A stretch of DNA of 62,718 nucleotides from an uncultured bacterium (GCA_964445745.1 CAYULU010000004.1:3445-66162), one strand, 5' to 3'; counted from the first letter of the stretch, positions 4,196 to 53,969 are shown. The notes: generated by a model not told the origin, from the sequence alone. Numbers and translations are program-made.

Positions 4196-4210
4196 TGTTG
4201 TAACATCCTC

Positions 4211-5344: not shown

Positions 5345-5379
5345 GGGCATCCTTTCAACCCGCAAAAAAGTCGGGCATT

Positions 5380-6603: not shown

Positions 6604-6663
6604 TCGTTTGGCTCTCGTTCATATCACCCGCCTGACCCCGGAGAAAAAAGACCCGCATCCGCC

Positions 6664-7218: not shown

Positions 7219-7221
7219 CGT

Positions 7222-7851
7222 TTAATTCAGACCGTCCCCGGCTTGATCCGATTCAGCCTCCCGAAGCTTTTCCTTCTGACGGGCCATCTCCTGGAAAAAT
7301 TTTTGCCGTTCCTTCTGAAACGCCACCTTTTGAATATCGAGCTCCTCTTTTTCCTTCCGAAGCTCATCCCGCCCAGGATCAGAAGAAGGGCTCCCGCCCG
7401 CTATTTCCAACTCGCGGATTCTTGCTTTAAGTTCTGAAATTTCACCCGAAAGCTTCCGGTTCGCTTCCTTCAACTCCGCAATTTTTTGTTCAAAAGATTC
7501 GATCACCCGAGGGTCCGCCGCGGCCGCCGCAAGCCTGTCACCCTCCCCAAGGGTTGGGACCACACCTGAATCTTCTCCGGAGAAATCCGCGGATTTCCTA
7601 TCCCGCATCTTTTCAAAGAGTTCTTCCTTCAATCGCTCCAGGTCCTGCTCCTTGTCCTGGATCATCCGAATCTGCTGGTCACGGACTTTTTCCCATTCCG
7701 ATTTCAGAGTCTCAAATTCCGCCATCGTCTCCGGCGGGGTCTTGAGATCTGAAGTTTCATTGGAAAAGGCCGGCGTGACAAAAAGAAAAATTGCCACCAA
7801 AATAAAAAACAACACGTTTTTTAAATTTTGTATTTTTAGATCGATGCCCAT
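7222..7851 (-). CDS. Hypothetical exported or membrane-anchored coiled-coil protein
   Basis: Hydrophobic N-terminal stretch (VLFFILVAIFLFVTPAFS) followed by E/K/Q-rich heptads. The start is uncertain because the longest ORF overlaps the tRNA. Confidence 0.7.
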   Translation of the reverse strand: MGIDLKIQNLKNVLFFILVAIFLFVTPAFSNETSDLKTPPETMAEFETLKSEWEKVRDQQIRMIQDKEQDLERLKEELFEKMRDRKSADFSGEDSGVVPTLGEGDRLAAAAADPRVIESFEQKIAELKEANRKLSGEISELKARIRELEIAGGSPSSDPGRDELRKEKEELDIQKVAFQKERQKFFQEMARQKEKLREAESDQAGDGLN

Positions 7852-7856
7852 ATAAT
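7828..7856 (+). promoter_or_regulatory. Sigma-70 promoter of tRNA-Arg
   Basis: TTGTAT (7828-7833), 17 nt spacer, TATAAT (7851-7856), 11 nt before the tRNA. Confidence 0.7.
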
Positions 7857-7867
7857 ACTGCCTCATT

Positions 7868-7941
7868 GCCCCCATAGCTCAATTGGATAGAGCATCTCCT
7901 TCCTAAGGAGAGGGTTGCATGTTCGATTCATGCTGGGGGCA
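7868..7941 (+). tRNA. tRNA-Arg (anticodon CCT)
   Basis: Acceptor GCCCCCA/TGGGGGC, D-arm TAGCTCAATTGGATAGAGC, anticodon arm TCTCC-TTCCTAA-GGAGA, T-loop GTTCGAT. CCA is not encoded. Confidence 0.96.
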
Positions 7942-8011
7942 TTTTTTTTAGATTGTTTCCCAAAAAACAAGTTTCCGTTTTCCTCTCTTGAACAAGAGGC
8001 GTCAACCGGTT

Positions 8012-8533
8012 TCAATACTTCAACAACGAAAACACATCGTACTTCGCAAGTTTTCCCCTGCCGTTGAGAAACTCAAGCTCGATCACGAAGGTTTGGAGAA
8101 CCACTTTACCGCCGATTAATTGGACCAGCTTCGCCGCCGCCTGCGCCGTTCCCCCGGTCGCAAGGAGATCATCCACGACTGCCACTTTCTGCCCGCGTTT
8201 GACAGCGTCCGCGTGAATCTCGAGGACCTCCTGCCCATATTCAAGCGTGCAACGGACCTGTTTCGTGCGCCAGGGAAGTTTTCCTTTTTTCCGGATGGGG
8301 ACAAATCCGATCCCGAGTTTCGCCGCGACCGGGGCCCCAAAAAGAAATCCGCGCGACTCAATTCCGGCCACAAGATCCGCCTTTGATTTTTTGACAGCTT
8401 TCGTCAATAGGGCAATCACCTCACGAAAAGCCGCCGGATCCTTGAGAACGGGCGTGATATCCCTGAAAAGAATTCCTTTTTTAGGAAAATCCGCAACGTC
8501 GCGTATTTTGGACTTTAAAGAAGTAATACTCAT
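8012..8533 (-). CDS. apt: Adenine phosphoribosyltransferase
   Basis: DFPKKGILFRDIT, GIESRGF, RKKGKLP, LEYG, VDDLLATGGT. Confidence 0.97.
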   Translation of the reverse strand: MSITSLKSKIRDVADFPKKGILFRDITPVLKDPAAFREVIALLTKAVKKSKADLVAGIESRGFLFGAPVAAKLGIGFVPIRKKGKLPWRTKQVRCTLEYGQEVLEIHADAVKRGQKVAVVDDLLATGGTAQAAAKLVQLIGGKVVLQTFVIELEFLNGRGKLAKYDVFSLLKY

Positions 8534-8572
8534 GGGTTCCTCCCGGGGATTAAAGTGTGATCAAAAAAAAAC

Positions 8573-9757
8573 TTACTGGTGCGTAAGGTAGTTTTCGAAG
8601 AGGTCACCTTCAAGAACAAGCCGGGCACGAATTCTTTTCAAGGCCACCGCCTCGAGCTGACGAATCCGTTCCCGCGTCACATTGAAATGTTGAGCCACTT
8701 CCTCAAGAGTGTGCGGGTCATGCTCCCCAAACCCAAATCGCAAAGTGAGGATTTTTCGTTCCCGATCATCCAGATGGTTCAGGAGCTTTTGAATTCTTTC
8801 GCTCTTCAGGACTTCAGCCACCTGGGAATCCGGTTTATTGGCAACATCATCCTCGATGAGATCAATGAGCTCTGCGGTCCCGTCAAGACTGATCGGTGTG
8901 TTAAGCGAACTGGGTTTATTCGCGATGTTTTCAATTTCACGGACCTTCGCGACCGGAATTTCAAGCACCTTGGCAATCTCACGCCGCGTGGGAGGTCGAT
9001 TAAGCCTCTGGGTTAAAGCATCGCGGACTCGCCGCCACTTGGCAATGATATCGTACATGTAGACCGGAATACGAATCGTCTTTCCATGATTGGAAAGGGA
9101 ACGCATCATCCCCTGCTTAATCCACCAGGACGCATAGGTCGAAAACCGGTATCCCCGTTTCGGATCAAACTTCTCAACCGCGCGCATTAAGCCAATATTG
9201 CCTTCTTCCACCAGATCCGAAAAAGGCAGTCCCATATGCGTGTAACGTTTGGCAATGGCAATCACGAGACGGAGATTCGAACGGATCATGTGATGGCGGG
9301 CCTCTTCTCCCTTTCGGCCCCCCCCATGCGCAAGATTCGACAACGATATTTCCTCCTCCGGCGTCAAAAGAGGGATGTGCTCGATTTGATCCAGATAAAT
9401 TTTCATCGCGGTGCGATCGAGCGTCTGATCACTCGAATCTTCGGAATTGTGATCGTCAGGCTCATCCCCCCCGCGAAGTTTCTTCCTGCGCTCCCCCACT
9501 GTCTCAAGGAGAGATTCCTTCTTGATAAGGTTCGAAGCTTCCTCTTGAAACGCTTTTTCTTTTAGAAGGAGTTTTTCCGTTTTGCTTTTACCGGAGGGAC
9601 GCAAACTTTCGGACGGAGACGACTTGGAACTGAGGTGGGAGCGGCGAGCCACAAGTCGGGACCGCCTAGAGCGGTGCCGTCTTGTTTTTTTCTGAGTACG
9701 CCGTTTTTTAAACCGGTGAACAGAACCGGTTTTCTTTTTTTTATTTTTTCCTGCCAT
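8573..9757 (-). CDS. RNA polymerase sigma-70 family factor (RpoD/RpoS-like) with K/R-rich N-terminal extension
   Basis: Region 1.2 YLDQIEHIPLL, region 2 NLRLVIAIAKRY..DLVEEGNIGL..FDPKRGYRFSTYASWWI, region 4 TLEEVA..FNVTRERIRQLE. Start placed at ATG 9757. Confidence 0.93.
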   Translation of the reverse strand: MAGKNKKKKTGSVHRFKKRRTQKKTRRHRSRRSRLVARRSHLSSKSSPSESLRPSGKSKTEKLLLKEKAFQEEASNLIKKESLLETVGERRKKLRGGDEPDDHNSEDSSDQTLDRTAMKIYLDQIEHIPLLTPEEEISLSNLAHGGGRKGEEARHHMIRSNLRLVIAIAKRYTHMGLPFSDLVEEGNIGLMRAVEKFDPKRGYRFSTYASWWIKQGMMRSLSNHGKTIRIPVYMYDIIAKWRRVRDALTQRLNRPPTRREIAKVLEIPVAKVREIENIANKPSSLNTPISLDGTAELIDLIEDDVANKPDSQVAEVLKSERIQKLLNHLDDRERKILTLRFGFGEHDPHTLEEVAQHFNVTRERIRQLEAVALKRIRARLVLEGDLFENYLTHQ

Positions 9758-9795
9758 GAGAGCCGTTAGATGATATCTCTCGCCTGCTAGCGTTA

Positions 9796-9833
9796 TCTCC
9801 GGAAGGTCAGAGTTTCCTCTGACCTTCCGGAGA
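9796..9833 (-). terminator. Perfect 17-bp hairpin downstream of ppdK
   Basis: TCTCCGGAAGGTCAGAG / CTCTGACCTTCCGGAGA with a 4-nt loop (GAAA on the minus strand). No U-tract. Confidence 0.5.
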
Positions 9834-9856
9834 ATCAATGGTTTAAAAATCGGTGC

Positions 9857-12550
9857 TTATTTCTTTCCTCGAAGCGCTGCCTGGGCCGCCGCAAGCCGTG
9901 CGATCGGCACACGATACGGCGAGCAACTGACATAATTCATCCCGACCCGGTGACAAAAATCAACCGAATCCGGATCTCCACCATGCTCACCGCAAATTCC
10001 GATTTTTAGGTCTTTCCTTGTTTTACGGCCTTTCTCGACCGCCAAACGGACCAAGGAACCGACTCCTTCTTCATCAATGGACTGAAACACATCTTTCTCG
10101 AAAATATTCTGTTCGAGATACGCGCCCATGAAGTGTCCGGAATCATCACGTGAAAACCCGAGGGTCATCTGCGTCAGATCGTTCGTCCCAAACGAGAAAA
10201 ACTCCGCCGTTTCAGCAACACGATCCGCGGTCAACGCCGCTCGCGGAACTTCAATCATCGTTCCGATCATGTAATCAACCTTGGTCTTCTTTTCCTCAAA
10301 AACCTTGTTGATCACTCCAACCGAAAGGTCCTTCAGAATATCAAGTTCCTTTTTAGTCCCGATGAGGGGGATCATGATTTCGGGAATCACTTTAATTCCC
10401 TTTTTCTTGAGATTGCAAGCCGCTTCAATAATCGCACGGACCTGCATGGCGTAAATCTCCGGGTAGGTGATCCCAAGACGACAGCCGCGATGCCCCAGCA
10501 TCGGATTGAACTCGTGCAAGGCATTGACTTTGTTCTTAATGACATCCACCGGCACATTCATGATCTGCGCCATTTCCATCTGGTTTTCATTTTCCTGCGG
10601 GAGGAATTCATGAAGCGGCGGATCCAGCAAACGGATCGTTACGGGAAATCCCTTCATCGCCTCAAAAATACCTTCAAAATCTTCGCGTTGCATCGGGAGA
10701 AGTTTGGCAAGCGCCTTTTCGCGTCCCGCCGTGTCATCGGCTAAAATCATTTCGCGAACGGCAATGATCCGGTCTCCCTCAAAGAACATATGTTCCGTCC
10801 GGCAAAGACCAATCCCTTCAGCGCCAAACTTGCGGGCCACGGTCGCATCAAGCGGCGTGTCACCGTTCGTTCGAACTTTAAGAACGCGAACGCCATCCGC
10901 CCACTTCATAAGGATCCCGAAGTCCCCGGAAAGCGTCGGCTCAATGGTATTGAGTTTGCCTTCGTAAACGTAACCCAGCGTCCCGTCAAGGGAGATAAAA
11001 TCCCCTTCTTTCACGGTCACTTTCCCGGCGGTAAACTGCTTCGCCTTGTAATCAATGTTAATGCCGCTCACTCCCGCCACACAGCATTTCCCCATCCCGC
11101 GGGCAACCACCGCCGCGTGCGACGTCATGCCGCCGCGCGAGGTCAAAATACCGGCCGCGACGTTCATCCCGCCGATATCTTCCGGCGAAGTTTCAATACG
11201 GACGAGAATCACGGTCTCCCCCTTCTTCGCCCACACTTCCGCTTCATCAGCGGTAAACACCACCTTACCGGTTGCGGCACCCGGAGAGGCCGGGAGACCC
11301 GTTGCAATCGGCTGTTTTGTTTTTTGCTGTTTGGGGTCAAACATCGGATGGAGCAATTGATCCAGCTGTTTGGGAGCGACCCGAAGAATCGCATCTTTCT
11401 GAGAGATCATTTTTTCCTTCACCATTTCCACCGCGGTACGAACCGACGCGGCCGCCGTGCGCTTTCCGCTACGAGTTTGAAGGATGTAAAGTTTCCCTTC
11501 CTGAATGGTAAATTCAATATCCTGCATGTCCCGATAATGCCGCTCGAGACGCAACCGGATGGTATCAAGTTGTTTATACACCGTCGGCCATTTTTGCGCG
11601 AGCACGGAAATCGGTTCCGGGGTCCGGATCCCAGCCACAACGTCCTCACCCTGTGCGTTCACAAGATACTCACCGTAAAACTTATTCTCACCGGTCGAAG
11701 GGTTACGGGTAAAACAAACGCCCGTTCCGGAGGTTTCCCCCATGTTGCCAAACACCATCGCCTGAACGTTCACTGCCGTACCAAGCAACCCGCGGATTTC
11801 ATTGATCTGGCGATACTTGAGCGCACGCGGGCAATTCCAGGAATTAAACACCGCGTTCACGGCTTTCACCAATTGATCAAACGGATCCTGGGGAAACTCT
11901 TCTCCCGTGTGATCCTGATAGACTTTTTTATACTGACGGACAACCTCTTTCAGGTCATTGGCGTTCAGGTCGGTATCAGTCTTCGCGCCAACCTGCTGTT
12001 TTTTCTTTTCAAGCACATGCTCGAAATCATCGTGCGGTACTTCCATCACGACATCGCCGAACATCTGGATAAAACGACGATAAGAATCCCAGGCAAAGCG
12101 TTCATTCTCGGTCTTGACAATGAGCCCCTGCACAACATCGGCATTCAGACCCAGGTTCAGGACTGTATCCATCATGCCCGGCATCGAAACCGCCGCGCCG
12201 GAACGGACAGAAACGAGAAGCGGATTGTTCCGGTCACCAAATTTAAGCCCCATCGCTTTTTCGAGTTTAACGATATTGTCACGAACCTGCTGTTCAAGAC
12301 CCACCGGCCATTTTTTTTCGTTCCGGTAGAACAGATCGCACGTTTCAGTGGTAATCGTAAAACCGGCAGGAACCGGGACGCCGAGGTTGGTCATTTCCGC
12401 AAGGTTTGCTCCCTTGCCGCCCAAGAGTTGTTTCATCTTGGCATCACCTTCGGCCTTACCGGCACCAAAAAAATAAACGTATTTAGACTTGGAAGATTTG
12501 GATTTTTTGGAACCTGACTTGCCGGATTTCCTACACGTAGCGGTACTCAT
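9857..12550 (-). CDS. ppdK: Pyruvate, phosphate dikinase
   Basis: GGKGANLAEM, SVRSGA..SMPGMMDTVLNLG, GGMTSHAAVVARG (phospho-His), GLCRTEHMF, FSFGTNDLTQ, ICGEHGGDP. Confidence 0.99.
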   Translation of the reverse strand: MSTATCRKSGKSGSKKSKSSKSKYVYFFGAGKAEGDAKMKQLLGGKGANLAEMTNLGVPVPAGFTITTETCDLFYRNEKKWPVGLEQQVRDNIVKLEKAMGLKFGDRNNPLLVSVRSGAAVSMPGMMDTVLNLGLNADVVQGLIVKTENERFAWDSYRRFIQMFGDVVMEVPHDDFEHVLEKKKQQVGAKTDTDLNANDLKEVVRQYKKVYQDHTGEEFPQDPFDQLVKAVNAVFNSWNCPRALKYRQINEIRGLLGTAVNVQAMVFGNMGETSGTGVCFTRNPSTGENKFYGEYLVNAQGEDVVAGIRTPEPISVLAQKWPTVYKQLDTIRLRLERHYRDMQDIEFTIQEGKLYILQTRSGKRTAAASVRTAVEMVKEKMISQKDAILRVAPKQLDQLLHPMFDPKQQKTKQPIATGLPASPGAATGKVVFTADEAEVWAKKGETVILVRIETSPEDIGGMNVAAGILTSRGGMTSHAAVVARGMGKCCVAGVSGINIDYKAKQFTAGKVTVKEGDFISLDGTLGYVYEGKLNTIEPTLSGDFGILMKWADGVRVLKVRTNGDTPLDATVARKFGAEGIGLCRTEHMFFEGDRIIAVREMILADDTAGREKALAKLLPMQREDFEGIFEAMKGFPVTIRLLDPPLHEFLPQENENQMEMAQIMNVPVDVIKNKVNALHEFNPMLGHRGCRLGITYPEIYAMQVRAIIEAACNLKKKGIKVIPEIMIPLIGTKKELDILKDLSVGVINKVFEEKKTKVDYMIGTMIEVPRAALTADRVAETAEFFSFGTNDLTQMTLGFSRDDSGHFMGAYLEQNIFEKDVFQSIDEEGVGSLVRLAVEKGRKTRKDLKIGICGEHGGDPDSVDFCHRVGMNYVSCSPYRVPIARLAAAQAALRGKK

Positions 12551-12700
12551 GGTGTTTCTTTCACTCCTTATAATCGTCCAGTGCCCTCGCCTCTGAAAGA
12601 CGAAACCATGGACTTGTTGGTTATTGAATGCAGTTTTAATTTACCCCTTCGACTGACCCGCACGGGGTTTCAGGTAGGGCAAAGAAGAGCGTGAATTATA

Positions 12701-14800
12701 TCACTCTTCGTCAAGTCTGGATAGCAAAGAAAGGTCGGCCAGCTTCCCCGTATAAATACGGTTCACCGAACCCACAAGCGCCATCCGGTTATCCCGGACC
12801 GATGCCTCCTCCGTATTCACAAGCACGTGATCAAAAAAGTCGTGGAGCGGATGAGAGAATATCTGCGCAAACAACTCAGTCCCCTCCTCATACGCCCCGC
12901 TTTCGATCAGCCCGGAAACTTCCTTAGCCTTCAGACGAATGATTTCATACAGACTTTTTTCCTGGTCCTCCGCGAAAAGCTCCGGTCTAATTTCTCCCGG
13001 AGTTTTCCCGTATCCCTTTAACATATTAGCCGTCCGCTGAATAACTTTTGCGGCCCGGACAAGAACTTTTTCATCCATGCTACTCAACACCTCGTACCTT
13101 TTGAATACATCCGCGACATCATCAAAATGAGACTTCATGACCGCCTGCAAAATTTCAAACTCCCGGGTGCCAGGTTTCACTCCGGATTCAAACACCGTTC
13201 GGTCCTGAAGAAATTTGAGAATCCTCTCGGTCAGCTTTTCTTTTTTATTCAAACGATCCCCGTAAAGCTCGATATTGACCTTCATCATTCCCGACAGGGA
13301 AAAACGCAACTCAAACGCACGGATCAGCTTCACAATCGCGCCTCCGGCGCGCCTCAAGGCAAACGGATCTTGGCTCCCGGTCGGTTCAATCCCGGTTCCA
13401 AAAGCACCCACCAAGAGATCAAGTCGGTCCATAATCCCAAAAAGGGCACCCAGCAAGGTCATGGAGCGCGCCACCGCCTTATGATCCTCCGAAAGATTTT
13501 TCGGGAGATATTGGGTCCCTATCGCAAAAGCCACAGGTTCATTCTCACCAGCCTCGAGCGCATACTCACGCCCCACAATCCCCTGAAGATCCGGCATTTC
13601 ATAAACCAGATGGGTCATGAGGTCAATTTTGGAAAGACAGGCCGTGCGCGCAAGATCGTCCGCGAGATCCTTCTTCCCCGCCATGTCCGAAAAAACAGGC
13701 GCGAGATTCTCAAGCCGCTCTGTTTTTTCAAGCACCGAGCCAAGCTTGCCCAGATACACGAGCTGGCTCAAAAGTCCTTTTTTGGATTCCAGTTTTTCCC
13801 GGGTATCAGCTTCATAAAAATACCGGGCATCTTTCAACCGGGATTCCAGGACACTCTCATAATCCGTTTTAATTTTCGCAAGTCCCGACCGCTTTCCGTT
13901 CATCACCGCGACAAAGCGGTTTAAAGGCCGGCCCTTCGAATCGTAACAGGCAAAGGTTTTCTGGTTCTTCTTCATGCAACTCGCAAGCACCTCGGCCGGA
14001 AGATCGAGGTACTCCTGAGAAAAAACACCCTGGATCGGGAACGGCTCTTCCGTCAGATGGGCGTTGATATGAACCAATTCTTCATCGATCTGTTTTTGCT
14101 GAAAGCGGCCTTTCAATGCCTGTCGGATCAGACTTTCACGAGTGTCAAGACTCAAGAGGACATGTTTCCTTTTAAGGAGTGCGACATACAACTTCCAGTC
14201 GGCCCGGGGAATGGCAAAGGCCTGTGGGGCAAGAAACCGGTGGCCGAAGCTCTGGTTGCCTGCGTTAACATCTGCGATCCGCAGAGGCATTTTTCTAGAA
14301 TCCATCAGCGCCACAAGCCAGCGGATGGGACGCGGAAACCGGAATCCGGACTGGTCCCATCGCATGAATTTTGAAAATCCGAGCGACGCGATCACGTCTT
14401 TCAGAATTTCCGGGAAGATCACGGCAATGGCGTTGCCCTTCTCGTGTTTTTTGAGGAAGATAAATTTCCCTTTGGGAGTATCGCGGATCTCGATATCCTC
14501 CTCAGACGCCTGCTTGCTCCTAAGGAAACCTTGCAACACCGCCGTCGGTTTGCCCTGTGCATCGAAACATTTTTCCCGGGACGGCCCCGAAATCTCGACG
14601 GTACGATCCTGTTGCCGGGAAGCGATCCCTCCGGCAAAAATCGCGATCCGTCGCGGAGTCGCCTCAACCCTGACCTCGTTAAAGGCAATTCGTTCGTCAA
14701 CCAGTTTTTGGCGAAGCTTCACCGCCAGCTCGTCGTAAACGGTATCGATAACCGCCGCCGGCAATTCCTCCGTTCCGATTTCGATGAGAATGTTCGACAT
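12701..14800 (-). CDS. glyS: Glycine--tRNA ligase beta subunit
   Basis: EIGTEELP, TPRRIA, FPRPIRWLVAL, RLKDARYFY, VYEMPDLQGIVG, TGSQDPFALRR; directly after glyQ. Confidence 0.97.
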   Translation of the reverse strand: MSNILIEIGTEELPAAVIDTVYDELAVKLRQKLVDERIAFNEVRVEATPRRIAIFAGGIASRQQDRTVEISGPSREKCFDAQGKPTAVLQGFLRSKQASEEDIEIRDTPKGKFIFLKKHEKGNAIAVIFPEILKDVIASLGFSKFMRWDQSGFRFPRPIRWLVALMDSRKMPLRIADVNAGNQSFGHRFLAPQAFAIPRADWKLYVALLKRKHVLLSLDTRESLIRQALKGRFQQKQIDEELVHINAHLTEEPFPIQGVFSQEYLDLPAEVLASCMKKNQKTFACYDSKGRPLNRFVAVMNGKRSGLAKIKTDYESVLESRLKDARYFYEADTREKLESKKGLLSQLVYLGKLGSVLEKTERLENLAPVFSDMAGKKDLADDLARTACLSKIDLMTHLVYEMPDLQGIVGREYALEAGENEPVAFAIGTQYLPKNLSEDHKAVARSMTLLGALFGIMDRLDLLVGAFGTGIEPTGSQDPFALRRAGGAIVKLIRAFELRFSLSGMMKVNIELYGDRLNKKEKLTERILKFLQDRTVFESGVKPGTREFEILQAVMKSHFDDVADVFKRYEVLSSMDEKVLVRAAKVIQRTANMLKGYGKTPGEIRPELFAEDQEKSLYEIIRLKAKEVSGLIESGAYEEGTELFAQIFSHPLHDFFDHVLVNTEEASVRDNRMALVGSVNRIYTGKLADLSLLSRLDEE

Positions 14801-14802
14801 GT

Positions 14803-15717
14803 TCAGTCTCTCGCCACCCGTCGTTTGTTTTTGGCCTTCGTTTTAAGAAGCGGGAAACCTTGAGCTTCACGGCTCTTGAGATATCCTTCGGCACATTTTC
14901 TCGCCAGCGCACGGACCCGGGCAATGTAGCGAGGACGTTCATTAACGCTCACCGCTCCCCTGGCATCCAGCAAATTAAAAGTATGTGAGGTTTTAAGACA
15001 GCAGTCATAAGCAGGCAGGACCATTCCCTCTTCAATCAACCGCGTGGCCTGTTTTTCATAATCCTCGAAATGTCTTTTGTAAATCTCCGGATCCGCCCCC
15101 TCGAAATTAAATTTCGAAAACTCTTTTTCACCCTGCAAATGCACGTCCCCGTAAGTCACCCGGTCATTCCACTGGATATCAAAAAGCGAATCCTTCTTTT
15201 GCAAAAACATCGCGATCCGCTCCAGTCCGTAAGTAATCTCGCAGGACACAACATCCAGGTCGATCGAACCGCATTGCTGAAAATAGGTAAATTGTGTAAT
15301 CTCAAGGCTGTCGAGCCAGACTTCCCATCCAAGCCCCCAGGCCCCGAGCGTTGGCGATTCCCAGTCATCTTCGACAAACCGGATATCATGCGAAAGCGCG
15401 TTAATCCCGACCGCGCGAAGACTCCCGAGATAAAGCTCCTGAACATTGGCGGGAGAAGGTTTCAGAATGACCTGGTACTGATAATAGTGCTGAGTCCTGT
15501 GGGGATTTTCTCCGTAGCGTCCATCCGTCGGCCGGCGCGAGGGTTCCACGTAAGCGGCTTTCCATGGTTCAGGACCGAGCGCACGAAGAAAGGTATGAGG
15601 AGAAAATGTACCGGCACCAACCTCAAGGTCATAAGGTTGCATCACAAGGCAACCCTGGCGCGCCCAATATTGGTTGAGCGTTTGTATTAACTGCTGAAAA
15701 CTCAATGGCTTAGGCAT
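14803..15717 (-). CDS. glyQ: Glycine--tRNA ligase alpha subunit
   Basis: [55 protein letters not shown]. Confidence 0.99.
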
Positions 15718-15779
15718 CTTTTATACCGGGCTTTCACTCTCGAAATAATTCTCTCAAAAGGAAGGATCAAAGTTGCGGG

Positions 15780-15808
15780 ATTGTATCAAAAAGGATGATC
15801 TGAAGCAA
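15780..15808 (-). promoter_or_regulatory. Sigma-70 promoter of glyQS
   Basis: Minus strand TTGCTT, 17 nt spacer, TACAAT, about 60 nt before the glyQ start. Confidence 0.55.
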
Positions 15809-15873
15809 GCAAAGGCCAGCCCAAAAAATCCGGCTACACTCCCAATAACCCTCTCACTCTTTTCTTGATAAAG

Positions 15874-16038
15874 TTCCGGGGACACATACTTAATTGCACC
15901 CTCAGGGTGATTGGGTCGGGAAAACTCACCGACCCCTCACTTTAATTAGAGGATAGATAGTGTGTCCTGCCTTTGATACGATGCCTACCCTGACGAAACG
16001 TAGCTGCGGAAGATCAGTGAAGTGACGTGTCCCCGGAA
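15874..16038. repeat. Palindromic REPIN/MITE-like element, family A copy 1 (with an insertion)
   Basis: TTCCGGGGACAC (15874-15885) ... GTGTCCCCGGAA (16027-16038). Interior homologous to copies 2 and 3, plus ~45 nt extra at 15896-15940. Confidence 0.85.
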
Positions 16039-16093
16039 ATTACAGAAATTACATTCACCCTGTCCCTTCGGTACCGGCGTCCGGTTTGTGATT

Positions 16094-16966
16094 TCAAACT
16101 GTTAAAAAGGCTCGGAGGGTGTTCAAATAAAGCTCCGTTTTTTCAAGGTGATGCATGTGGGAAGCGTCTTCGATAACGAGGAACTGTGAGCCAGGCATTT
16201 CCTTATGAAAATATTCGGTCGACTCCGGGGAAGCTTCATCGTAACGGCCGCACGTAAAAAGCGCTGGCACTTTGATGTCTTTCAGAAGGGACGAGCGTTC
16301 ATAATTTTTAAGCGTCCCGGTGATCGTAAACTCACTCGGTCCCCACATCGACTTATAAACCTCGGCGCCCAAATGCTCAAAAGTTTTTTGAACGCATTCC
16401 GGCCAGGGATCCATACGGCATAAATGTTTCCGGTAAAACGCCATCATAGCCGCTTGATATTCCGGCGAATCAAAACGCCCGGTTTCTTCGCCGGCCAGGA
16501 TCGCCTTTTGATCTTTTTCTTCCATCGTGTCGATGAGACGTCTGCAATCATTCCGCCAGCGGGACACACTTAAACAAGGCGACGATAGAATAAGACTCAC
16601 GATGCCTTCCGGTCCGTGTGTCAGCATATAATCCACGGCCAGCATCGTCCCCCAGGATTGCCCGAGAAGATGTAATTTTCTTAAAGCCAGTTTCTTCCGG
16701 AGGATGTCCAGCTCCTCGACAAAACGCTCCATCGTCCATAGCGGATCATTCCGCGGCCTGTCGGAATTACCACAGCCAAGTTGATCATAGAAGATTACCG
16801 GTCTGTCGGCGGCAAGGGCCTTCAGAGGATCGAGGTAATAATGCGGCGCGCCGGGGCCTCCGTGCAACACAAGAAGCGGGACCTTCGGCTTATCGGCGCC
16901 GCTTATTTCATACCAGATCTTTCCCCCGGGGACTTCAATGTATCCTTCGCGAGATATCTCAGTCAT
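16094..16966 (-). CDS. Proline iminopeptidase family alpha/beta hydrolase
   Basis: LHGGPG, YDQLGCGNS, GQSWG nucleophile elbow, GRYDE, ASHMHH. Confidence 0.9.
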   Translation of the reverse strand: MTEISREGYIEVPGGKIWYEISGADKPKVPLLVLHGGPGAPHYYLDPLKALAADRPVIFYDQLGCGNSDRPRNDPLWTMERFVEELDILRKKLALRKLHLLGQSWGTMLAVDYMLTHGPEGIVSLILSSPCLSVSRWRNDCRRLIDTMEEKDQKAILAGEETGRFDSPEYQAAMMAFYRKHLCRMDPWPECVQKTFEHLGAEVYKSMWGPSEFTITGTLKNYERSSLLKDIKVPALFTCGRYDEASPESTEYFHKEMPGSQFLVIEDASHMHHLEKTELYLNTLRAFLTV

Positions 16967-17006
16967 TTTTTAAAGGCCTTTTTATCGTTCATCACTTATC
17001 CATCAC

Positions 17007-17618
17007 TTAAGACAGTGAATGGTTTACGTTTTTTCGCATCGCGTAAAACTTCTCGCGGGAACCCGGGACCGCCATTTCCCGCGTGACCTCAAAACCCCAG
17101 TGCTCGTACTTGCGCACATTCAGAAGACTTTGCGTGATAAGCGTACACGGCAAACCTTCCTTCGCGGCTCGTTCCATCATCGGTCTCAAAAGACGCGAAG
17201 CATGACCTTGGCCATGAAATGGGGGCGGCACGGCGATCAGGTGCAGGTACCATTGAGGTTCGTCGCCAAGATGCAGGGTCAGCGTACCGATCACATGGTT
17301 GACCGCCTCGAGTCGCGCCATAGTTCCCCGATTTTTGAAATCTTTTTCGGAAAGCGGGTCTGGCTCCTTATCCTCCGAATGGTCCATGCCCGGCGGAAAC
17401 CATATACTCACCGCTTCAAGTTTTTCCGAGGACGCCTGCCTCACGGCCCGGGGCGAGCACGCAGTCACAAGCGAACGAAAAAACCGCCGTTTCAACTCGA
17501 GATGTCCCGGCTCGTTCTGAAATATGAAATGACCGATCGGATCATCGGCGCCGGAAAAAGCGTCCGCGGACACCTCCGCCATCGCGTCGATCCGGTTCAG
17601 AGGAATTTCATACGGCAT
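17007..17618 (-). CDS. GNAT family N-acetyltransferase
   Basis: WYLHLIAV.P.FHGQGHASRLL (motif A), NVRKYEHWGF. Confidence 0.88.
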   Translation of the reverse strand: MPYEIPLNRIDAMAEVSADAFSGADDPIGHFIFQNEPGHLELKRRFFRSLVTACSPRAVRQASSEKLEAVSIWFPPGMDHSEDKEPDPLSEKDFKNRGTMARLEAVNHVIGTLTLHLGDEPQWYLHLIAVPPPFHGQGHASRLLRPMMERAAKEGLPCTLITQSLLNVRKYEHWGFEVTREMAVPGSREKFYAMRKNVNHSLS

Positions 17619-17630
17619 CAGAAGTCCTTT

Positions 17631-17789
17631 TTAGGAAATTTTGTTTTTTAGTAACCAAACACCCGCGGGCAAACAAACCAAAAGCGTGACAATGTTGTAG
17701 ACCGCCCAAAAAGCGTCATTTTTCAATACCATTCCCACTAACGTCAAACCCGCCAGCACGAGCAGTAGCATACCGATCTTCTTGTTCAT
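17631..17789 (-). CDS. Small two-TM membrane protein (52 aa), not in the supplied ORF track
   Basis: Manual translation MNKKIGMLLLVLAGLTLVGMVLKNDAFWAVYNIVTLLVCLPAGVWLLKNKIS; GGGAGG upstream; fills the gap in a co-oriented operon. Confidence 0.7.
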   Translation of the reverse strand: MNKKIGMLLLVLAGLTLVGMVLKNDAFWAVYNIVTLLVCLPAGVWLLKNKIS

Positions 17790-17939
17790 CCCTTTCACCC
17801 TCCCGTAGTTTTAAGTATTTTTCGAAGCAGATTAAACTTTTCACATTGAGATTCACGTCGTTTCTTATACAAAATACGGCACTTTAATCAAAAAACGAAG
17901 GATCTGGACAGAATATCTGAGGCGGTAGTGGGGGCTATA

Positions 17940-18055
17940 ATTCCGGGGACACATTACTTAATTCGAGAAGTGATAATAACCTTCGGTTGATACTGGGATG
18001 CCTGCCCTGACAGGATTTAGCGACAGGAAATAATTAAGTAATGTGTCCCCGGAAT
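17940..18055. repeat. Palindromic REPIN/MITE-like element, family A copy 2
   Basis: Perfect 24-bp inverted repeat ATTCCGGGGACACATTACTTAATT (17940-17963) / AATTAAGTAATGTGTCCCCGGAAT (18032-18055). Confidence 0.9.
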
Positions 18056-18110
18056 CTTTACCTTGGGTATCCGGAACCATTCTTAGGCGCGTTTGCGTGT
18101 TTATTTTGAA

Positions 18111-18461
18111 TTACCAGAAAAACCACTTTTTTGATTTTTTGCCAACGGGAACGACAACAGCCACATCATTGGCTACATTCCCGCTGTTCCCGGATGTGCT
18201 TACGGAAACAAAATCGGCATCAGCAGTTTCGCGGGTGTATACCGTCACAGCTTGATTCTGCCCTTTTCCCGATCCGGTAACGGCATCCCATGTCACATTC
18301 GCGTAAGGGTCCGGTTTATCAGCTTTTTCACTTCCTACGCTTTTCTGAGCTTCAGTCTCAACCGGTCGAGATACCTTCTCCTGCAAAACTTCCTCACAAT
18401 AAACTGCCGGGATTATCGAACAAATCAACAAGCTAAAAAGAAGACTGGCTCTAACGCCCAT
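18111..18461 (-). CDS. Hypothetical secreted protein
   Basis: Signal-peptide-like MGVRASLLFSLLICSIIPAVYC, acidic and Ser/Gly/Val-rich body, C-terminal KKSKKWFFW. Start set at ATG 18461, overlapping the previous stop. Confidence 0.65.
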   Translation of the reverse strand: MGVRASLLFSLLICSIIPAVYCEEVLQEKVSRPVETEAQKSVGSEKADKPDPYANVTWDAVTGSGKGQNQAVTVYTRETADADFVSVSTSGNSGNVANDVAVVVPVGKKSKKWFFW

Positions 18462-18648
18462 AGGGATTCTCCTGGGTTCTGGCACTCTGAACGGCATAAC
18501 TTTCTGTCGCGCCCTGAATCGGGGCTTGAGTCGTAGCTAATACTGTTCCGATCGGTCGCCCCACTGGAGAGACGGTGTCGTGAGCCGTTTTCCCGGCACA
18601 TCCTGTCAAAAAAATAGCAAAAGAAATGCTCAGGATGATACGCATCAT
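18451..18648 (-). CDS. Small lipoprotein (65 aa)
   Basis: Lipobox FLTG-C after a hydrophobic leader; ATGA overlap with the CsgG-family stop. Confidence 0.7.
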   Translation of the reverse strand: MMRIILSISFAIFLTGCAGKTAHDTVSPVGRPIGTVLATTQAPIQGATESYAVQSARTQENPYGR

Positions 18649-19556
18649 TGCAGTCCCTCCACAAAATCTCCGGCCTGCGCCGGGCCACTTAGAGTACCCA
18701 CTTTGGCCTTGCTGTATTTATCAAGCACCGATTCAACAATAATAGTTCCCAGAACAGTTGCTTCCTGACCGAGCTCCATTCCTGAATCCGGGTCGATAAT
18801 GCTTTCACCGGGCCTGGCAAGCCGCAATACTTGCCCCATGGCCATGCCGCTTTGCAACCCGGCATTAATCAAAATCATACCGCTTTCATCGACTTTAATA
18901 ACTTTGCCTTTCCAAGGAACCGCTGCCATCTGTTCGGCGATATACTGGACAGCGCGGTCAATTGCCATTTGAGTTGCTTTACCCATGGGCGTTTTTTGGA
19001 AACCATCCTGACCGAATCCAACCCCGGCAACGTTCGCGGAAAAAGCAACGCCCCCCGAAGAAGCGTCTCCCTCAACCCGTTGCGAGTGAAGGACCTGAGA
19101 AGTTGTGGTATCAATCAAGCGAAGGATTATCGCAACATGAGCCGTCGCCGATTTATTACGAAGGCTAACCCCATAAAGATTGAGCCCTTGCCCGCCGCTA
19201 GATTTAGTCTCTTCGAACTCAGTAATAGCCCCCTGAACGATAATCTGGGCTTTTTTAATATTCCCGAATTGAGCGCCGGATCCGTCCTTTGAAGCGCGCG
19301 CACTCGACGCAAGATTTTGCTCGGCAAGGACCGCATTTAACGCCTGCCTCTCCAGCACAATGAACTGCCCGCTCTGAATTAAGGAATCGGTCAGCATGTC
19401 TGCCATACCTGTACCAATCCTCCATGCCCCAGCCGCATTGGTTTTATTTTCAAAATCTGCCACAGCGATAGTTTTCTTCAATATGGCGGCATGAATCACC
19501 CCGCTACCCCAAACTAAAAAAAAGAGGAAACCTGAAAAATAAATTAGTTTTCGCAT
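18645..19556 (-). CDS. CsgG/HfaB family protein with C-terminal FlgT-C-like beta domain
   Basis: TIAVADFENKT, GMADML.D.L.QSGQF.VLER..L..VL.EQNL, AQIIVQGAITEFE, VAIILRLIDT.T; C-terminal WKGKVIKV..LINAG..IIDPDSG.ELG. Confidence 0.85.
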   Translation of the reverse strand: MRKLIYFSGFLFFLVWGSGVIHAAILKKTIAVADFENKTNAAGAWRIGTGMADMLTDSLIQSGQFIVLERQALNAVLAEQNLASSARASKDGSGAQFGNIKKAQIIVQGAITEFEETKSSGGQGLNLYGVSLRNKSATAHVAIILRLIDTTTSQVLHSQRVEGDASSGGVAFSANVAGVGFGQDGFQKTPMGKATQMAIDRAVQYIAEQMAAVPWKGKVIKVDESGMILINAGLQSGMAMGQVLRLARPGESIIDPDSGMELGQEATVLGTIIVESVLDKYSKAKVGTLSGPAQAGDFVEGLQ

Positions 19557-19620
19557 TAATCAATCTCCTTCTCCGTATTGTTGTTGCGTATTATAGCCCA
19601 AAAACAAAAAAATCATATGC

Positions 19621-19660
19621 TTGGTTTCTCCTTGGTTTCTCCGGATTTTCTCCGGATTTT
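19621..19660. repeat. 11-bp-periodic tandem repeats upstream of the CsgG-family operon
   Basis: TTGGTTTCTCC TTGGTTTCTCC GGATTTTCTCC GGATTTT. Confidence 0.6.
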
Positions 19661-19802
19661 AGATCAGGAAACAATATCCCTAACGTTATTCATTTTCGAA
19701 GCTGGCGTTGGCGGCGGTGACTTTCTTTTCAGGCGAACTTGTGTCATTTTCCCCTCAATCTGAAACGGAGGTGGAGCGCGACATGAAAAGTGAGACCATC
19801 GG

Positions 19803-19917
19803 AATTCCGGGGACACATTACTTAATTGGGGGAGGGATAGTATCCTGCTTTTGGAAAAAACCTGCTCTGACGAAACACAGCGGCGGGAGATCAGTTAAGT
19901 GACGTGTCCCCGGAATT
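19803..19917. repeat. Palindromic REPIN/MITE-like element, family A copy 3
   Basis: AATTCCGGGGACACATTACTTAATT (19803-19827) ... AGTTAAGTGACGTGTCCCCGGAATT (19893-19917); interior homologous to copy 1. Confidence 0.9.
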
Positions 19918-19994
19918 TTATAGAAATGGATAAAAGATTGGAGATGACACTCGTCATGTTTGTAAGCAATGCTCCTGTTCGAATCCCCTATTAA

Positions 19995-20032
19995 CACAAA
20001 ACCCCAAGATCAAAAGACCTTGGGGTTTTGTG
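19995..20032 (-). terminator. 14-bp hairpin following the duplicated tRNA-Lys 3' end
   Basis: CACAAAACCCCAAG / CTTGGGGTTTTGTG with a 10-nt loop. Confidence 0.65.
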
Positions 20033-20042
20033 AGCCCGGATG
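20027..20042 (-). mobile_element. att-like direct repeat of the tRNA-Lys 3' end
   Basis: TTTGTGAGCCCGGATG is identical to 21381-21396. A second degenerate copy lies at 20092-20117. Confidence 0.8.
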
Positions 20043-20128
20043 CCCTTGCGCTCAATGCGCAAGGACTCCTTTGCCAGGAGCCTGATGCTCCTTGTGCGGG
20101 AGATGGATTCGAACCATTTATCTCCACT

Positions 20129-21049
20129 CTAGGAGGCCAAAAGATCGTACCCAGCCATAATGCCATCACAAATAAAACTCTCGAGATGACTATAGTCATT
20201 TTGCAGCTGCGATTGGTTCAGGTAGAGAATATAAAATCGGCGTTTTTCCTGTGAGATAATGGCCGGAGCAAAATCCTCTTTAAGCAACATGCCCACAAGG
20301 ATAAGCCTGCCGATCCGTCCATTCCCGTCCGAAAAGGGGTGGATCTGCTCAAAACGGCTATGAATCTGCGCCGCAAAACCGATGATATCCTTTTCATCAC
20401 GACGAATATCTTTCAAAAGACTTTTCATCAAGACCGGCACTTTCAGATAGTTTGCGGTCACCACATTCGATCCAGCGATCCTGACAGCATGTCGTCGATA
20501 ATTCCCGGCATCCTCCCGAATCCCGTTCATAAGGATTCCGTGTAGCTTAAGGATCATTTCTTCACTTATCGTTCCCCCATCCGTCAGAGATCGGGTTAAG
20601 TATCGAAAAGCAGCTTGGTGGTTCTTAACCTCCATCTGTTCAATGATGGATTTATCCGGCAACGCGGTGTTTTGAAAAAGGATTGCCGCAGTCTCCGGTT
20701 CCGTGAGAGTGCTTCCCTCGATCCGGTTTGTGTTATAGGTTAAAGCCAGTAGGAATTGGTCATAAAGGTCTTTCCGTGCTTCTAAGATCCGAAGAATGTC
20801 CGAATACTGCTTCCTCCTATCCATCAACACCTGCTTCTTAGCCGCAAGAAAGCTATCGGGGATAATATTTTGACCGGTCAACTGGAGATAAAGCCCGTCG
20901 ATTCGCTTCGCGGCCTGTTGTCTCGGAATCGAACGACCGTTGATCCAGCTATTCAGCGTCGGGAATGACACCCCAAGATCTGCAGCAAGCACCTCCTGCG
21001 TCTTCTTGGATATCTTCTGTATGAGCTGTAGCTTTTCCTTTATATTCAT
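20129..21049 (-). CDS. XRE-HTH-Fic fusion protein (class II Fic)
   Basis: N-terminal HTH TQEVLAADLGVSFPTLNSWING, inhibitory motif TNRIEG, catalytic HPFSDGNGRIGR. Start set at ATG 21049. Confidence 0.92.
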   Translation of the reverse strand: MNIKEKLQLIQKISKKTQEVLAADLGVSFPTLNSWINGRSIPRQQAAKRIDGLYLQLTGQNIIPDSFLAAKKQVLMDRRKQYSDILRILEARKDLYDQFLLALTYNTNRIEGSTLTEPETAAILFQNTALPDKSIIEQMEVKNHQAAFRYLTRSLTDGGTISEEMILKLHGILMNGIREDAGNYRRHAVRIAGSNVVTANYLKVPVLMKSLLKDIRRDEKDIIGFAAQIHSRFEQIHPFSDGNGRIGRLILVGMLLKEDFAPAIISQEKRRFYILYLNQSQLQNDYSHLESFICDGIMAGYDLLAS

Positions 21050-21055
21050 GTTTGA

Positions 21056-21106
21056 AACATACATAACTTTATAAAGTTTGTCAAGTTTTCTTATCTTTAT
21101 AAAGTT
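21056..21106 (-). promoter_or_regulatory. Leaderless-type promoter with two palindromic operators for HTH-Fic
   Basis: TTGACA (21079-21084), 17 nt spacer, TATGTT (21056-21061), 6 nt, ATG. Palindrome AACTTTATAAAGTT at 21065-21078 and a one-mismatch copy at 21093-21106. Confidence 0.7.
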
Positions 21107-21305
21107 GGTCTAAGCCCTGAAACTAGAGATAGATTGCCCAACTTGCGCTGGTTATGGGGACTATTCCAGTTTCAGCAAGGTTATCTTGATGACAACTTCT
21201 GCGATATGTGCGGGATCAGCTGAAACTGGCCGGGTGAAACTAAAGGCCGTTTTGGAGATAAGAGGCGGATTTGAGCTGGAAATTGGGCGGATCGAAGGGG
21301 TCAGA

Positions 21306-21344
21306 AAATGAAAATCCCCCGACACCGTCGAGGGATTTTCATTT
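21306..21344. terminator. Hairpin terminator downstream of tRNA-Lys
   Basis: AAATGAAAATCCC ... GGGATTTTCATTT, 13-bp stem. Confidence 0.65.
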
Positions 21345-21384
21345 GTCGCAAGTCATTATATCTAAACGACTTACATGTTGTTTG

Positions 21385-21458
21385 TGAGCCCGGATGGATT
21401 TGAACCATCGACACCGTCCTTAAAAGGGACGTGCTCTACCAGGCTGAGCTACGGGCCC
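21385..21458 (-). tRNA. tRNA-Lys (anticodon TTT)
   Basis: Reverse complement GGGCCCGTAGCTCAGCCTGGTAGAGCACGTCC-CTTTTAA-GGACGGTGTCGATGGTTCAAATCCATCCGGGCTCA. Confidence 0.96.
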
Positions 21459-21660
21459 ACGAACTTTTCAGATACAACTTAGAATTTATCAAAAAAAAAC
21501 AACGCGCCATTGCTGAGCTACCCCCACAATCATCAAACTCTTCCATTGTTGATTGTGGGGTCCGTCCGACTTTTGAATTTTGCCAACCGGCAAAATTCTG
21601 GGCGGAGGGCCCACGTACTTACAAAATAAAAATCCAACTTCTCAAGCAACGGATAACGCA

Positions 21661-53721: not shown

Positions 53722-53969
53722 AATTAGGCTCCCAGGTTGGAAATACTTGTGAAACCGTCCCTACAAGAGCATAAGAAAATCACCGTGAACTGGAGCGTTC
53801 TGCTAGACGAGAATGGGGAGCCAATTCACAATTACTTATGCGTTTTTGCCTAAGTGGCCGAGCGTGAGTTTTTTTAGATCGGTCTTTCCAGCTTAAAGCG
53901 GAAAAGGTCGTTCAAATTCACAAAAACCTTTATACGCTTACTTAGCCTGCCGATCTTGAACGTAAAGCC

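Follow-up and report, generated by a model that had tools for sequence, protein, structure and literature searches.

Miniature TIRYT-derived elements at gene-block junctions in a Candidatus Omnitrophota genome

We analyzed a window of 62,718 nt from an uncultured bacterium (GCA_964445745.1, CAYULU010000004.1:3445-66162), placed in Candidatus Omnitrophota by its CsgG and hydrolase homologues, and in it three short elements, E1, E2 and E3, that lie in the 5.7-kb interval between glyQ and a tRNA-Lys gene, the one clearly variable spot of the window. One element occupies each of three joints of this interval (glyQ/module A, module A/module B and module B/Fic-att), and none is found in the other ~35 intergenic gaps. 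We suggest that these are probably three old copies of a ~113-bp miniature non-autonomous transposon, which settled at the junctions or served there as sites of ordinary rearrangement, rather than sites dedicated to gene capture. The features on which the argument draws are listed below in window coordinates.

14803..15717, minus strand: glyQ, left anchor of the variable segment; synteny with the relative L126 stops at its start codon
15874..16038, minus strand: E1, non-autonomous TIRYT-derived element of 165 nt (113 nt without a nested insert); orientation taken from the transposase-gene remnant
15896..15947, no strand assigned: unrelated 52-nt hairpin repeat nested in E1 just past the left arm, missing from the same position in E2 and E3
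16094..17798, minus strand: module A, with a 55-aa membrane protein (17631-17798), a GNAT acetyltransferase (17007-17618) and an alpha/beta hydrolase of the proline iminopeptidase family (16094-16966)
17940..18055, minus strand: E2, 116 nt, with perfect 24-nt terminal inverted repeats (17940-17963 and 18032-18055)
18000..18017, minus strand: transposase-gene remnant in E2, AATCCTGTCAGGGCAGGC
18018..18031, minus strand: remnant of the transposase promoter or 5' leader in E2, ATTTCCTGTCGCTA
18111..19556, minus strand: module B, with CsgG (18645-19556), a 65-aa lipoprotein (18451-18648) and a 128-aa secreted protein (18111-18497)
19683..19776, minus strand: SIMPL-family pseudogene remnant, the last ~31 codons with one in-frame stop, ending 26 nt from E3
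19803..19917, minus strand: E3, 115 nt, sister copy of E1
20027..20117, minus strand: two partial repeats of the tRNA-Lys 3' end, resembling att remnants (20027-20042 and 20102-20117; 16/16 and 15/16 matches to 21381-21408)
21384..21458, minus strand: tRNA-Lys (UUU), right anchor of the variable segment

Three elements with common ends

In the 62,718 nt there are six exact matches to the 12-mer TTCCGGGGACAC, and these are the six ends of E1, E2 and E3; when up to two mismatches were allowed, 17 matches were found, against 7.05 ± 2.79 in shuffled sequences. The initial annotation had described three homologous, co-oriented elements without further copies, and this description holds: E1-E3 are the sole copies in the 62.7-kb window, to which all same-genome searches reported here apply. 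Each element consists of two 24-nt arms around a spacer of 63-68 nt. The arms form terminal inverted repeats (TIRs), which in E2 are complementary at 24 out of 24 positions (ATTCCGGGGACACATTACTTAATT) and in E3 are 88% complementary over 26 nt. The TIR of E2 is identical to those of L007, L014, L041, L052, L078 and L089 (L numbers denote loci retrieved in our comparisons). While the outer 12 nt are identical at all element ends, the interiors, which are homologous and co-oriented in the three copies, are far more diverged. Whole-element identity is 81% between E1 and E3, 74% between E1 and E2, and 72% between E2 and E3, which marks E1-E3 as old, diverged copies, and all three are non-coding, with no intact open reading frame (ORF).

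E1 reaches 165 nt because the unrelated 52-nt repeat is nested inside it. A second copy of this repeat lies at 52559-52595, upstream of lptF/G, with 95% identity to the core of the nested one (15899-15935); the hairpin reads GGGTCGG-GAAAACTC-CCGACCC. In addition, ~10 nt just outside the right (plus-strand) arm are common to E1 (16039-16050, TTACAGAAAT) and E3 (19918-19930, TTATAGAAAT) and are lacking in E2. This might be the true end of the E1/E3 subfamily, lying beyond the inverted repeat, or a piece of flanking DNA copied along with the element.

Folded as RNA, every element gives one long hairpin (-44 to -53 kcal/mol, z -6.1 to -8.2; for E2, -47 kcal/mol and z about -7 to -8), and DNA folding gives z values of -4.9 to -7.6; taken alone, one arm reaches 0 kcal/mol and does not surpass shuffled sequences. 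It could be argued from such structures that the elements are kept by the host as stabilizers of mRNA 3' ends, RNase III sites, insulators or terminators, in the manner of REP/BIME, ERIC and Correia repeats. In support of this idea, every element is found between two operons, downstream of the first and upstream of the second, both strands give strong stems, and the arms are far better conserved than the interiors. However, conservation of the arms is equally explained by recognition by a transposase, no U-tract follows the stems, the terminator scan found no terminator at the elements, and no Rfam family scored above noise. We consider this explanation improbable, and any part that the elements might play as inter-operon RNA hairpins would be a secondary one. 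The promoter and terminator scans of 15600-21600 returned 7 sites each, with ~7 expected from shuffled sequences. The Rfam search, at gathering and permissive thresholds, gave two tRNAs and one noise match (a plant microRNA, E=0.07), and a structured-RNA family was rejected.

Remnants of a transposase gene

The descent of the elements can be best illustrated by E2. Read on the minus strand, it runs from the left arm through the promoter remnant, the gene remnant and ~35 nt of other sequence to the right arm. The promoter remnant, ATTTCCTGTCGCTA, matches nt 37-50 of the full-length L046 element from another Omnitrophota genome at 13 out of 14 positions (L046 reads ATTTCCTGCCGCTATAAT). The gene remnant, AATCCTGTCAGGGCAGGC, encodes N-P-V-R-A-G, as in the tyrosine-motif region Y-V-E-L-N-P-V-R-A-G of TIRYT transposases, and agrees with NPVRAG-coding DNA at 16 out of 18 positions in L079 and 13 out of 14 in L089. 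Since the promoter and gene remnants are collinear with the full element, E1-E3 are internally deleted descendants of a TIRYT element. In E1, a block at 15983-15997 (TTCGTCAGGGTAGGC on the minus strand) corresponds in the alignment to the VRAG-coding block of the other two copies (19860-19874 in E3), and both E1 and E3 keep V-R-(A/V)-G. The asymmetric interior ('..CCTGC..CTGAC..') that the initial annotation had singled out is this VRAG-coding block seen from the opposite strand. A hammerhead-like reading of 'CTGACGAAAC' was also tried and dropped, as this block, read as its reverse complement, is the VRAG-coding remnant.

Complete transposons with the same TIRs exist in other genomes. A scan of one genome per species (596 Gb) for a TIR pattern with 17 positions of the 23-mer fixed yielded at least 117 loci, distributed over many phyla. 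By our own estimate some tens of matches to a 17-base pattern are expected by chance in 596 Gb, but the 117 loci are not chance matches, given their agreement over the full 23-mer (best match with at most two mismatches in 95 out of 117), the presence of an inverted partner less than 1 kb away (35 out of 117) and the shared gene (a Y1 homologue or remnant in 24 out of 117). A scan of viral contigs for the TIR gave no match, and a plasmid collection contained only distant transposase homologues (up to 37% identity at full length), annotated just as 'transposase'.

In eight of these loci (L019, L022, L046, L066, L079, L089, L109 and L112) the TIRs bound elements of 738-886 bp with a single ORF of ~220 aa, the stop codon of which falls within the right TIR. 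Its product matches Pfam Y1_Tnp (PF01797, 1.8e-10) and NCBIfam NF047646 (REP_Tyr_transpos, 'REP-associated tyrosine transposase'), the latter with 63 bits and hence under the 80-bit equivalog cut-off. Among solved structures, E. coli TnpA-REP (4ER8) matches best (E=1.6e-4), and both the HUH motif and the tyrosine motif correspond in the alignment. YCLMxNH[IV]H, LWQGRF, Y[IV]ExNP and SS are common to eight proteins of the family, and among these residues NH[IV]H, LWQ, Y[IV]ExNP and SS are invariant or nearly so. Signatures of the NH[IV]H/WQ/Y-NP/SS type characterize TnpA-Y1 subclass 2.1 (Quentin et al. 2018, PMC6006769), which was equated in that work with the TIRYT proteins of Di Nocera et al. 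2013 (PMC3733652); RAYT group 1 is the same class (Bertels et al. 2017, PMC5581495). A TIRYT is a RAYT-like gene flanked by long TIRs, most of which share GGGGWSAS (PMC3733652; restated in PMC6006769), and some genomes with TIRYTs also contain 'TIR repeats' in families of moderate abundance (PMC3733652). In the window, this motif is present as GGGGACAC at nt 5-12 of all six ends.

Taken together, the GGGGWSAS motif, the eight autonomous copies, the class-2 Y---NP motif and the collinear remnants of E2 identify the parent as a ~740-bp TIRYT or 'TIRtron' with 23-24-bp TIRs and a ~220-aa class-2 HUH/Y1 transposase (RAYT group 1/TnpA-Y1 subclass 2.1). The initial annotation had placed an HUH transposase of the RAYT type behind the repeats and had proposed a search for a Y1 gene between the same ends; in essence it was right, as the eight full elements, including that of Omnitrophota L046, and the gene remnants of E2 attest. 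Between the parent and its smallest relatives there is a graded series, which leads from the full-length elements through deletion derivatives of 203-394 bp that still carry both ends of the transposase gene and MITE-like copies of 58-200 bp to bare palindromes of 48-55 bp (arm, 2-7-nt loop, arm). In some full-length elements (L066:4751-5636 and L109:1272-2150), the 23-nt end sequence is repeated in tandem, with three to four copies per end at a spacing of 25-48 nt, which is reminiscent of multiple transposase-binding sites.

The initial label of REPIN/MITE stands in part. With 113-116 bp when the nested insert is left aside, 24-bp TIRs and no intact ORF, E1-E3 have the form of miniature inverted-repeat transposable elements (MITEs; 70-300 bp, TIRs of 15-30 bp). 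No target-site duplication or other direct repeat flanks E1, E2 or E3 (flanks AAAG/ATTA, ATAA/TCTT and GGAA/TTTT), as the initial annotation had said; such a duplication, which usually accompanies MITEs, is not expected for Y1 transposition, and the elements are not DDE products. Thus E1-E3 are MITE-like in form, and their remnants point to derivation from a Y1 rather than a DDE element. They also resemble REPINs in combining two inverted repeats and a short spacer into one long hairpin. However, they are not REPINs in the strict sense, because the single arm is not a palindrome, there is no GTAG/CGTC tag, and the transposase belongs to the TIR-associated and not the REP-associated groups: the related proteins are RAYT group 1/subclass 2.1, whereas the cognates of REPINs are groups 2 or 3.

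Block junctions and gene capture

The variable segment is embedded in a stretch that is nearly all housekeeping. The window contains dxs, xseA, an rpoD-like sigma factor gene, ppdK, glyQS, frr, pyrH, tsf, rpsB and fumarase, together with an [FeFe]-hydrogenase and its maturases, pyruvate kinase, fabF, rpsA, lptF/G and glgC. Almost every gene is on the minus strand, and the GC skew of the plus strand is negative over the whole window (-0.07 to -0.20); the window is part of one replichore with a very strong gene-strand bias. Synteny with the nearest long relative, L126 (glyQ 90% and PPDK 85% identical), extends over 6103-15717 and halts at the start of glyQ. The spot is variable in relatives too, since a 1.26-kb indel directly upstream of glyQ distinguishes the two whose glyQ is closest (93% and 90%; L162:547-1808 versus L126:9774-9916). 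The indel contains a four-helix-bundle gene and a 30-nt direct repeat. A comparison of the glyQ region in relatives, as proposed initially, thus confirmed a variable segment next to glyQ, but the glyQ loci of 80 relatives contain no TIR copy, and in none of them do the modules lie upstream of glyQ.

The gene content of both intervals between elements, all on the minus strand, is as listed in the initial annotation, except that the small membrane protein has 55 rather than 52 residues. In module A, the hydrolase has a nearest non-identical homologue of only 69% identity, and the contexts of its homologues vary. The trio of module B (CsgG, the 65-aa lipoprotein and a secreted protein of 112-128 aa) is kept in relatives whose CsgG is 94, 77 and 73% identical, and its neighbors differ in every relative examined: SIMPL upstream and NfeD/Band_7 downstream in L208-L211, DsrE and PLD in L212, and adh_short and a response regulator in a third contig. 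The identities of CsgG homologues (94, 79, 77 and 73%) form a gradient resembling that of glyQ, and by this comparison the trio looks native to the lineage. The GC content of the modules equals the window average. None of the trio loci for which DNA is available (L208-L212) has a TIR copy, nor do the loci of the CsgG and hydrolase homologues hold any copy of the window's TIR family.

The edges of module B indicate how it came to lie here. DNA homology with L208-L211 covers 18085-19776 (86% over 1695 nt). It ends 29 nt short of E2, having faded 26 nt beyond the stop codon, and on the other side 26 nt short of E3. The final 94 nt of this block correspond to the 3' end of SIMPL in the relatives; this stump reads STSVSD*GENDTSSPEKKVTAANASFENE* as compared with STSVSDWGENDTSSLEKKVTAVVNASFSIE* in L209. 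With the 3' end of SIMPL at the edge of the block, the trio appears to have reached its present place with the cut-off stump of a former neighbor. E3 lies inside the 250-nt joint between this stump and the att remnant. The initial annotation had suspected a tRNA-Lys att site, and the repeats bear this out: 21381-21396 recurs exactly at 20027-20042, and 21393-21408 recurs at 20102-20117 with 15 out of 16 matches. The tRNA-Lys repeats bracket a lone Fic/HTH gene (20129-21064; Fic and HTH_3 domains), which seems to be what is left of a decayed island that had integrated at tRNA-Lys. A hairpin-rich insert of 59 nt parts the two tRNA-Lys fragments. A tRNA-like string, 'GTTCGAATCC', at ~19970 was considered as a further att remnant and set aside, as it gave no fold and no match.

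The elements therefore sit at seams between blocks of different ancestry. That the joints were created in assembly, by chimeric joining of a contig through the repeats, is very improbable. Short-read contigs of other samples do break inside E1 and E2. However, independent contigs span Fic-E3-module B (L203/L205 and L204) and module A-E1-glyQ (L118 and L119), two contigs of one sample abut across E2 with an overlap of ~27 nt according to worked-out coordinates, and copies only 72-81% identical are too different to confuse an assembler. The arrangement of the window is not a chimera.

A rival explanation is that the elements are pure bystanders, three independent insertions into existing dispensable spacers, clustered owing to short-range hopping and the tolerance of a junk-rich segment. 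It would be in line with this that the copies are old and diverged, that the spacers hosting them are the longest in the neighborhood, and that members of the family fill consecutive gaps around ordinary genes elsewhere: in L017, three co-oriented 193-bp copies of the window's TIR family occupy consecutive gaps around MNT, a PAS kinase and a DUF gene, and in L014 two bare palindromic copies occupy successive gaps around a sigma-54 activator, GAF + patatin and rpoN. However, E3 between a gene stump and an att remnant lies in a rearrangement joint and not in an ordinary spacer, and the ~35 other gaps, several of them 250-500 nt long, have no copy. We regard this explanation as possible, although on its own it leaves us doubtful. 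Another miniature repeat family of the window, of 83 nt with ~18-nt inverted ends (AGARGCGGTTTCAYAAGT), is scattered, unlike E1-E3. Its two full copies (71-153 and 61517-61599) are 94% identical and 61 kb apart, a half copy lies at 53735-53763, and all are at the 3' ends of genes.

The reading that we prefer, and regard as probable, is that the miniature transposons either settled passively or took part in ordinary recombination. Internal deletions of a TIRYT/TIRtron insertion sequence produced the miniature element. By analogy with IS200/IS605 and TnpA-REP, its two arms might pair in single-stranded DNA to form a 24-bp stem, at the foot of which a transposase encoded elsewhere in the genome might cut and rejoin single-stranded DNA. 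The element would then move without target duplication and preferably from the lagging-strand template, with a strand bias linked to replication. The IS200/IS605 family, to which these transposases are related, is known for a bias of this kind. The transposase-sense strand of E1-E3 is the minus strand, the G-rich strand that also carries nearly all genes, and, judged in the usual way from the direction of genes and the GC skew, this is the leading-strand sequence, hence the lagging-strand template. Strand-biased transposition of single-stranded DNA fits the co-orientation of E1-E3, which accordingly needs no cassette logic. The elements may have settled in dispensable junction spacers, or may have served as portable sites of homology or nicking for ordinary rearrangements, while the variable segment was reshuffled and the CsgG trio arrived with the stump of its former upstream gene. 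Clustering could stem from short-range hopping, from the tolerance of junction DNA to insertion, or from a part played by the elements in rearrangements, through homology or through a transposase acting across copies.

Several points weigh against this reading. Three copies in three consecutive junction gaps are tighter than random insertion predicts; by our own post-hoc arithmetic, a run of three consecutive gaps would have a chance of ~1 in 200, and a placement in precisely the three junction gaps one of ~1 in 6,500. A matching transposase gene was not found for this genome in the 62.7 kb searched, so that mobilization in trans is what we infer: tblastn with a TIRYT protein gave as its sole match the 18-aa remnant within E2, and Pfam found no recombinase, transposase or integrase domain in ~47 window proteins (a few small ORFs were left unscanned). 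These results agree with the initial annotation, which had seen no transposase. For the chemistry of cleavage and for the strand bias we extrapolate from IS608/ISDra2 and E. coli TnpA-REP (background in PMC6006769). Contigs of the same strain were recognized in several sequencing runs and samples, as they encode glyQ, CsgG and Fic proteins identical to those of the window; runs with this strain are SRR16642448, SRR16642447, SRR27197509, SRR27197511, SRR11845624, SRR11845625 and JGI 3300076261. These contigs either have the arrangement of the window or are interrupted at the repeats, and among them there is no empty site, excision junction or polymorphism. Finally, the related loci described below suggest that the elements may have done more than settle passively.

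The most suggestive of these loci is L216 (identical to L213), in an Omnitrophota metagenome-assembled genome (GCA_043813255.1, JBDRLG010000012.1). At 3852-11589 it contains an array in which a unit of ~45 nt, GGGGACGTCCCAAAAAGGGACACCCTGATGGCGCGTAATTT, carrying the element's 25-nt TIR, occurs in nine copies of one orientation over 7 kb. The units separate six co-directional accessory cassettes, toxin-antitoxin pairs among them: DUF5640; DUF6088 and a truncated AbiEii; a hydrolase; DUF6788 and NTP_transf_8; HigB/HigA; and GNAT and a hydrolase. The array ends in a gene for a 196-aa Y1 transposase, followed by the sole inverted unit, and the other 13 kb of the locus have no unit. Directly upstream of the Y1 gene are a frameshifted GNAT gene and a hydrolase that is 68% identical to that of the window. 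The cassettes have GC contents between 0.31 and 0.48, and in two cases the unit overlaps or cuts short the ORF upstream of it at its 3' end. The arrangement looks integron-like, although L216 represents a different TIR subfamily from that of the window and is a single locus. In two further Omnitrophota lineages, a Y1 element likewise follows immediately downstream of the homologous hydrolase. In one lineage (L217-L221), a DUF3313 gene and a 739-bp Y1 element, the latter bounded on both sides by the palindrome GGGGACAGTCCCGGGGACTGTCCCC, lie after the hydrolase and before clpB (L217:3350-4838); at this position L222-L224 have just 45 nt (L222:6867-6911), so that the two form a filled/empty pair.

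It would be tempting to infer from these cases that a transposase acts on the ends of neighboring copies in the window as well, so that the segment between two elements is excised and reinserted as a unit or DNA is joined beside an existing end, and that modules accumulate in a co-oriented array, an HUH-based analogue of integron or ISCR-type capture. Each junction of the variable segment holds exactly one element and the other gaps hold none. Module B is a conserved unit found in a new context in every relative, and here it is accompanied by the stump of a neighbor 26 nt from E3. L216 has nine co-oriented units, six cassettes and a terminal Y1 gene, and one of its cassettes is a GNAT-hydrolase pair homologous to module A; in the L217 lineage, the Y1 element and DUF3313 were inserted after the homologous hydrolase, as judged against L222. 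However, no transposase lies in or near the array of the window, and E1-E3 are not bare sites of recombination but complete MITEs, each with two arms and a decayed interior. The homology boundaries are 26-29 nt off the TIRs and not at them, gain or loss variants are absent from the same-strain contigs of several samples, and the modules have the GC content of the window. Among the 117 loci of the window's TIR family, none has the window's module genes beside a TIR, the sole match being a distant Fic homologue ~1.3 kb away. The limits of L216, in subfamily and number, also count here. In sum, the placement at junctions, the SIMPL stump and the related L216 array speak for the cassette or capture idea of the initial annotation, whereas the lack of polymorphism, excision product and transposase and the age of the copies speak against it, and we consider dedicated capture unlikely. 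Integron-like capture at the boundaries of the elements is likewise possible but unlikely for the window: same-strain contigs carry one arrangement, and homology ends short of the TIRs.

That the segment is a true integron with unusual attC sites is exceedingly improbable. The modules are co-directional and parted by imperfect palindromes of attC-like length. However, no integrase or recombinase domain is present in the scanned window proteins, the ends read TTCCGGGG... and have no GTTRRRY core, the same repeats flank a Y1 transposase gene elsewhere, and the modules are multi-gene operons. The absence of an attC core from the ends, (A)TTCCGGGGACAC at either boundary, had been seen initially and holds on inspection, and with no IntI among the scanned window proteins the attC/integron class was rejected.

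Thus, the passive and ordinary-recombination readings, taken together, rank first and are probably correct, ahead of dedicated capture, and E1-E3 most likely do not form a dedicated integron-like capture system.

Implications and relation to known systems

TIRYT-derived miniature elements are a known and barely studied kind, described so far in two comparative papers, which is new for Omnitrophota and is seen here with informative gene remnants. We know of no experimental test of any TIRYT, and the deletion series, from 48-bp palindromes and 113-bp MITEs with gene scraps through larger derivatives to 740-bp elements, makes the cis requirements of this class of transposase testable, all the more as the 24-bp TIR is almost unchanged across several phyla. 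The elements also mark a reshuffled spot in a housekeeping, strongly co-oriented stretch, and could therefore aid in reading the genome plasticity of an uncultured phylum. The L216 array is the lead most worth following; if arrays of this type are general, they would be a new route by which bacteria gather accessory and defense cassettes. As a bolder and rather unlikely extension, the ends of TIRYT-type Y1/HUH transposons might be junction or capture sites that stack modules into co-oriented arrays, a counterpart of integrons based on HUH enzymes and single-stranded DNA, of which the window would be a decayed three-site array and L216 a live one.

Among known systems, the closest is TIRYT/TIRtron (PMC3733652, PMC6006769 and PMC5581495). 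In both, GGGGWSAS TIRs flank a RAYT-like Y1 gene with the stop codon overlapping the right TIR, the protein has ~220 aa with NH[IV]H, WQ, Y[IV]ELNP and SS, and TIR-only copies occur as singles, dimers and clusters with a patchy distribution across phyla. Unlike the published cases, the host belongs to Omnitrophota, a phylum not sampled in those papers, and the copies in the window are 113-bp MITEs with collinear gene scraps at block junctions. In a full-text literature search, the term TIRYT appeared in only two works (PMC3733652 and PMC6006769), and we found no published account of MITE derivatives with gene remnants or of arrays of the L216 type.

REPIN-RAYT systems (Bertels & Rainey 2011, PMC3116915) also combine two inverted repeats and a spacer of ~70 nt in a long hairpin, and their non-autonomous copies, like E1-E3, would be moved in trans by a Y1 HUH transposase without target duplication. 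E1-E3 differ from them in an arm that is no palindrome by itself, in having no GTAG or CGTC tag and in the low copy number that we see; moreover, genes of the TIR-group transposases lie inside the TIRs, as in an insertion sequence. With IS200/IS605 (IS608 and ISDra2; 'peel and paste') the family shares the HUH/Y1 core and, by expectation, the single-stranded substrate, the absence of target duplication and an orientation bias. However, membership in this class (TnpA-IS200, subclass 1.1) was rejected, because it requires Y---Q and same-strand subterminal hairpins, whereas the family has the class-2 Y---NP motif (Y[IV]ExNP) and true inverted repeats, and there is no tnpB. The arrangement of co-oriented repeats parting co-directional modules recalls integrons and ISCR/IS91, as does the enzyme gene at the end of the L216 array, and ISCR/IS91 also use HUH enzymes and pick up neighboring DNA. 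Unlike integrons, there is neither a tyrosine-recombinase integrase nor an attC core, and unlike the elements described here, ISCR/IS91 rely on Y2 rolling-circle enzymes with distinct ori and ter ends. Lastly, Correia/NEMIS, ERIC and RUP elements are similar in being ~110 bp long with TIRs, intergenic and probably co-transcribed as a stable stem, but those families stem from DDE insertion sequences and make target duplications.

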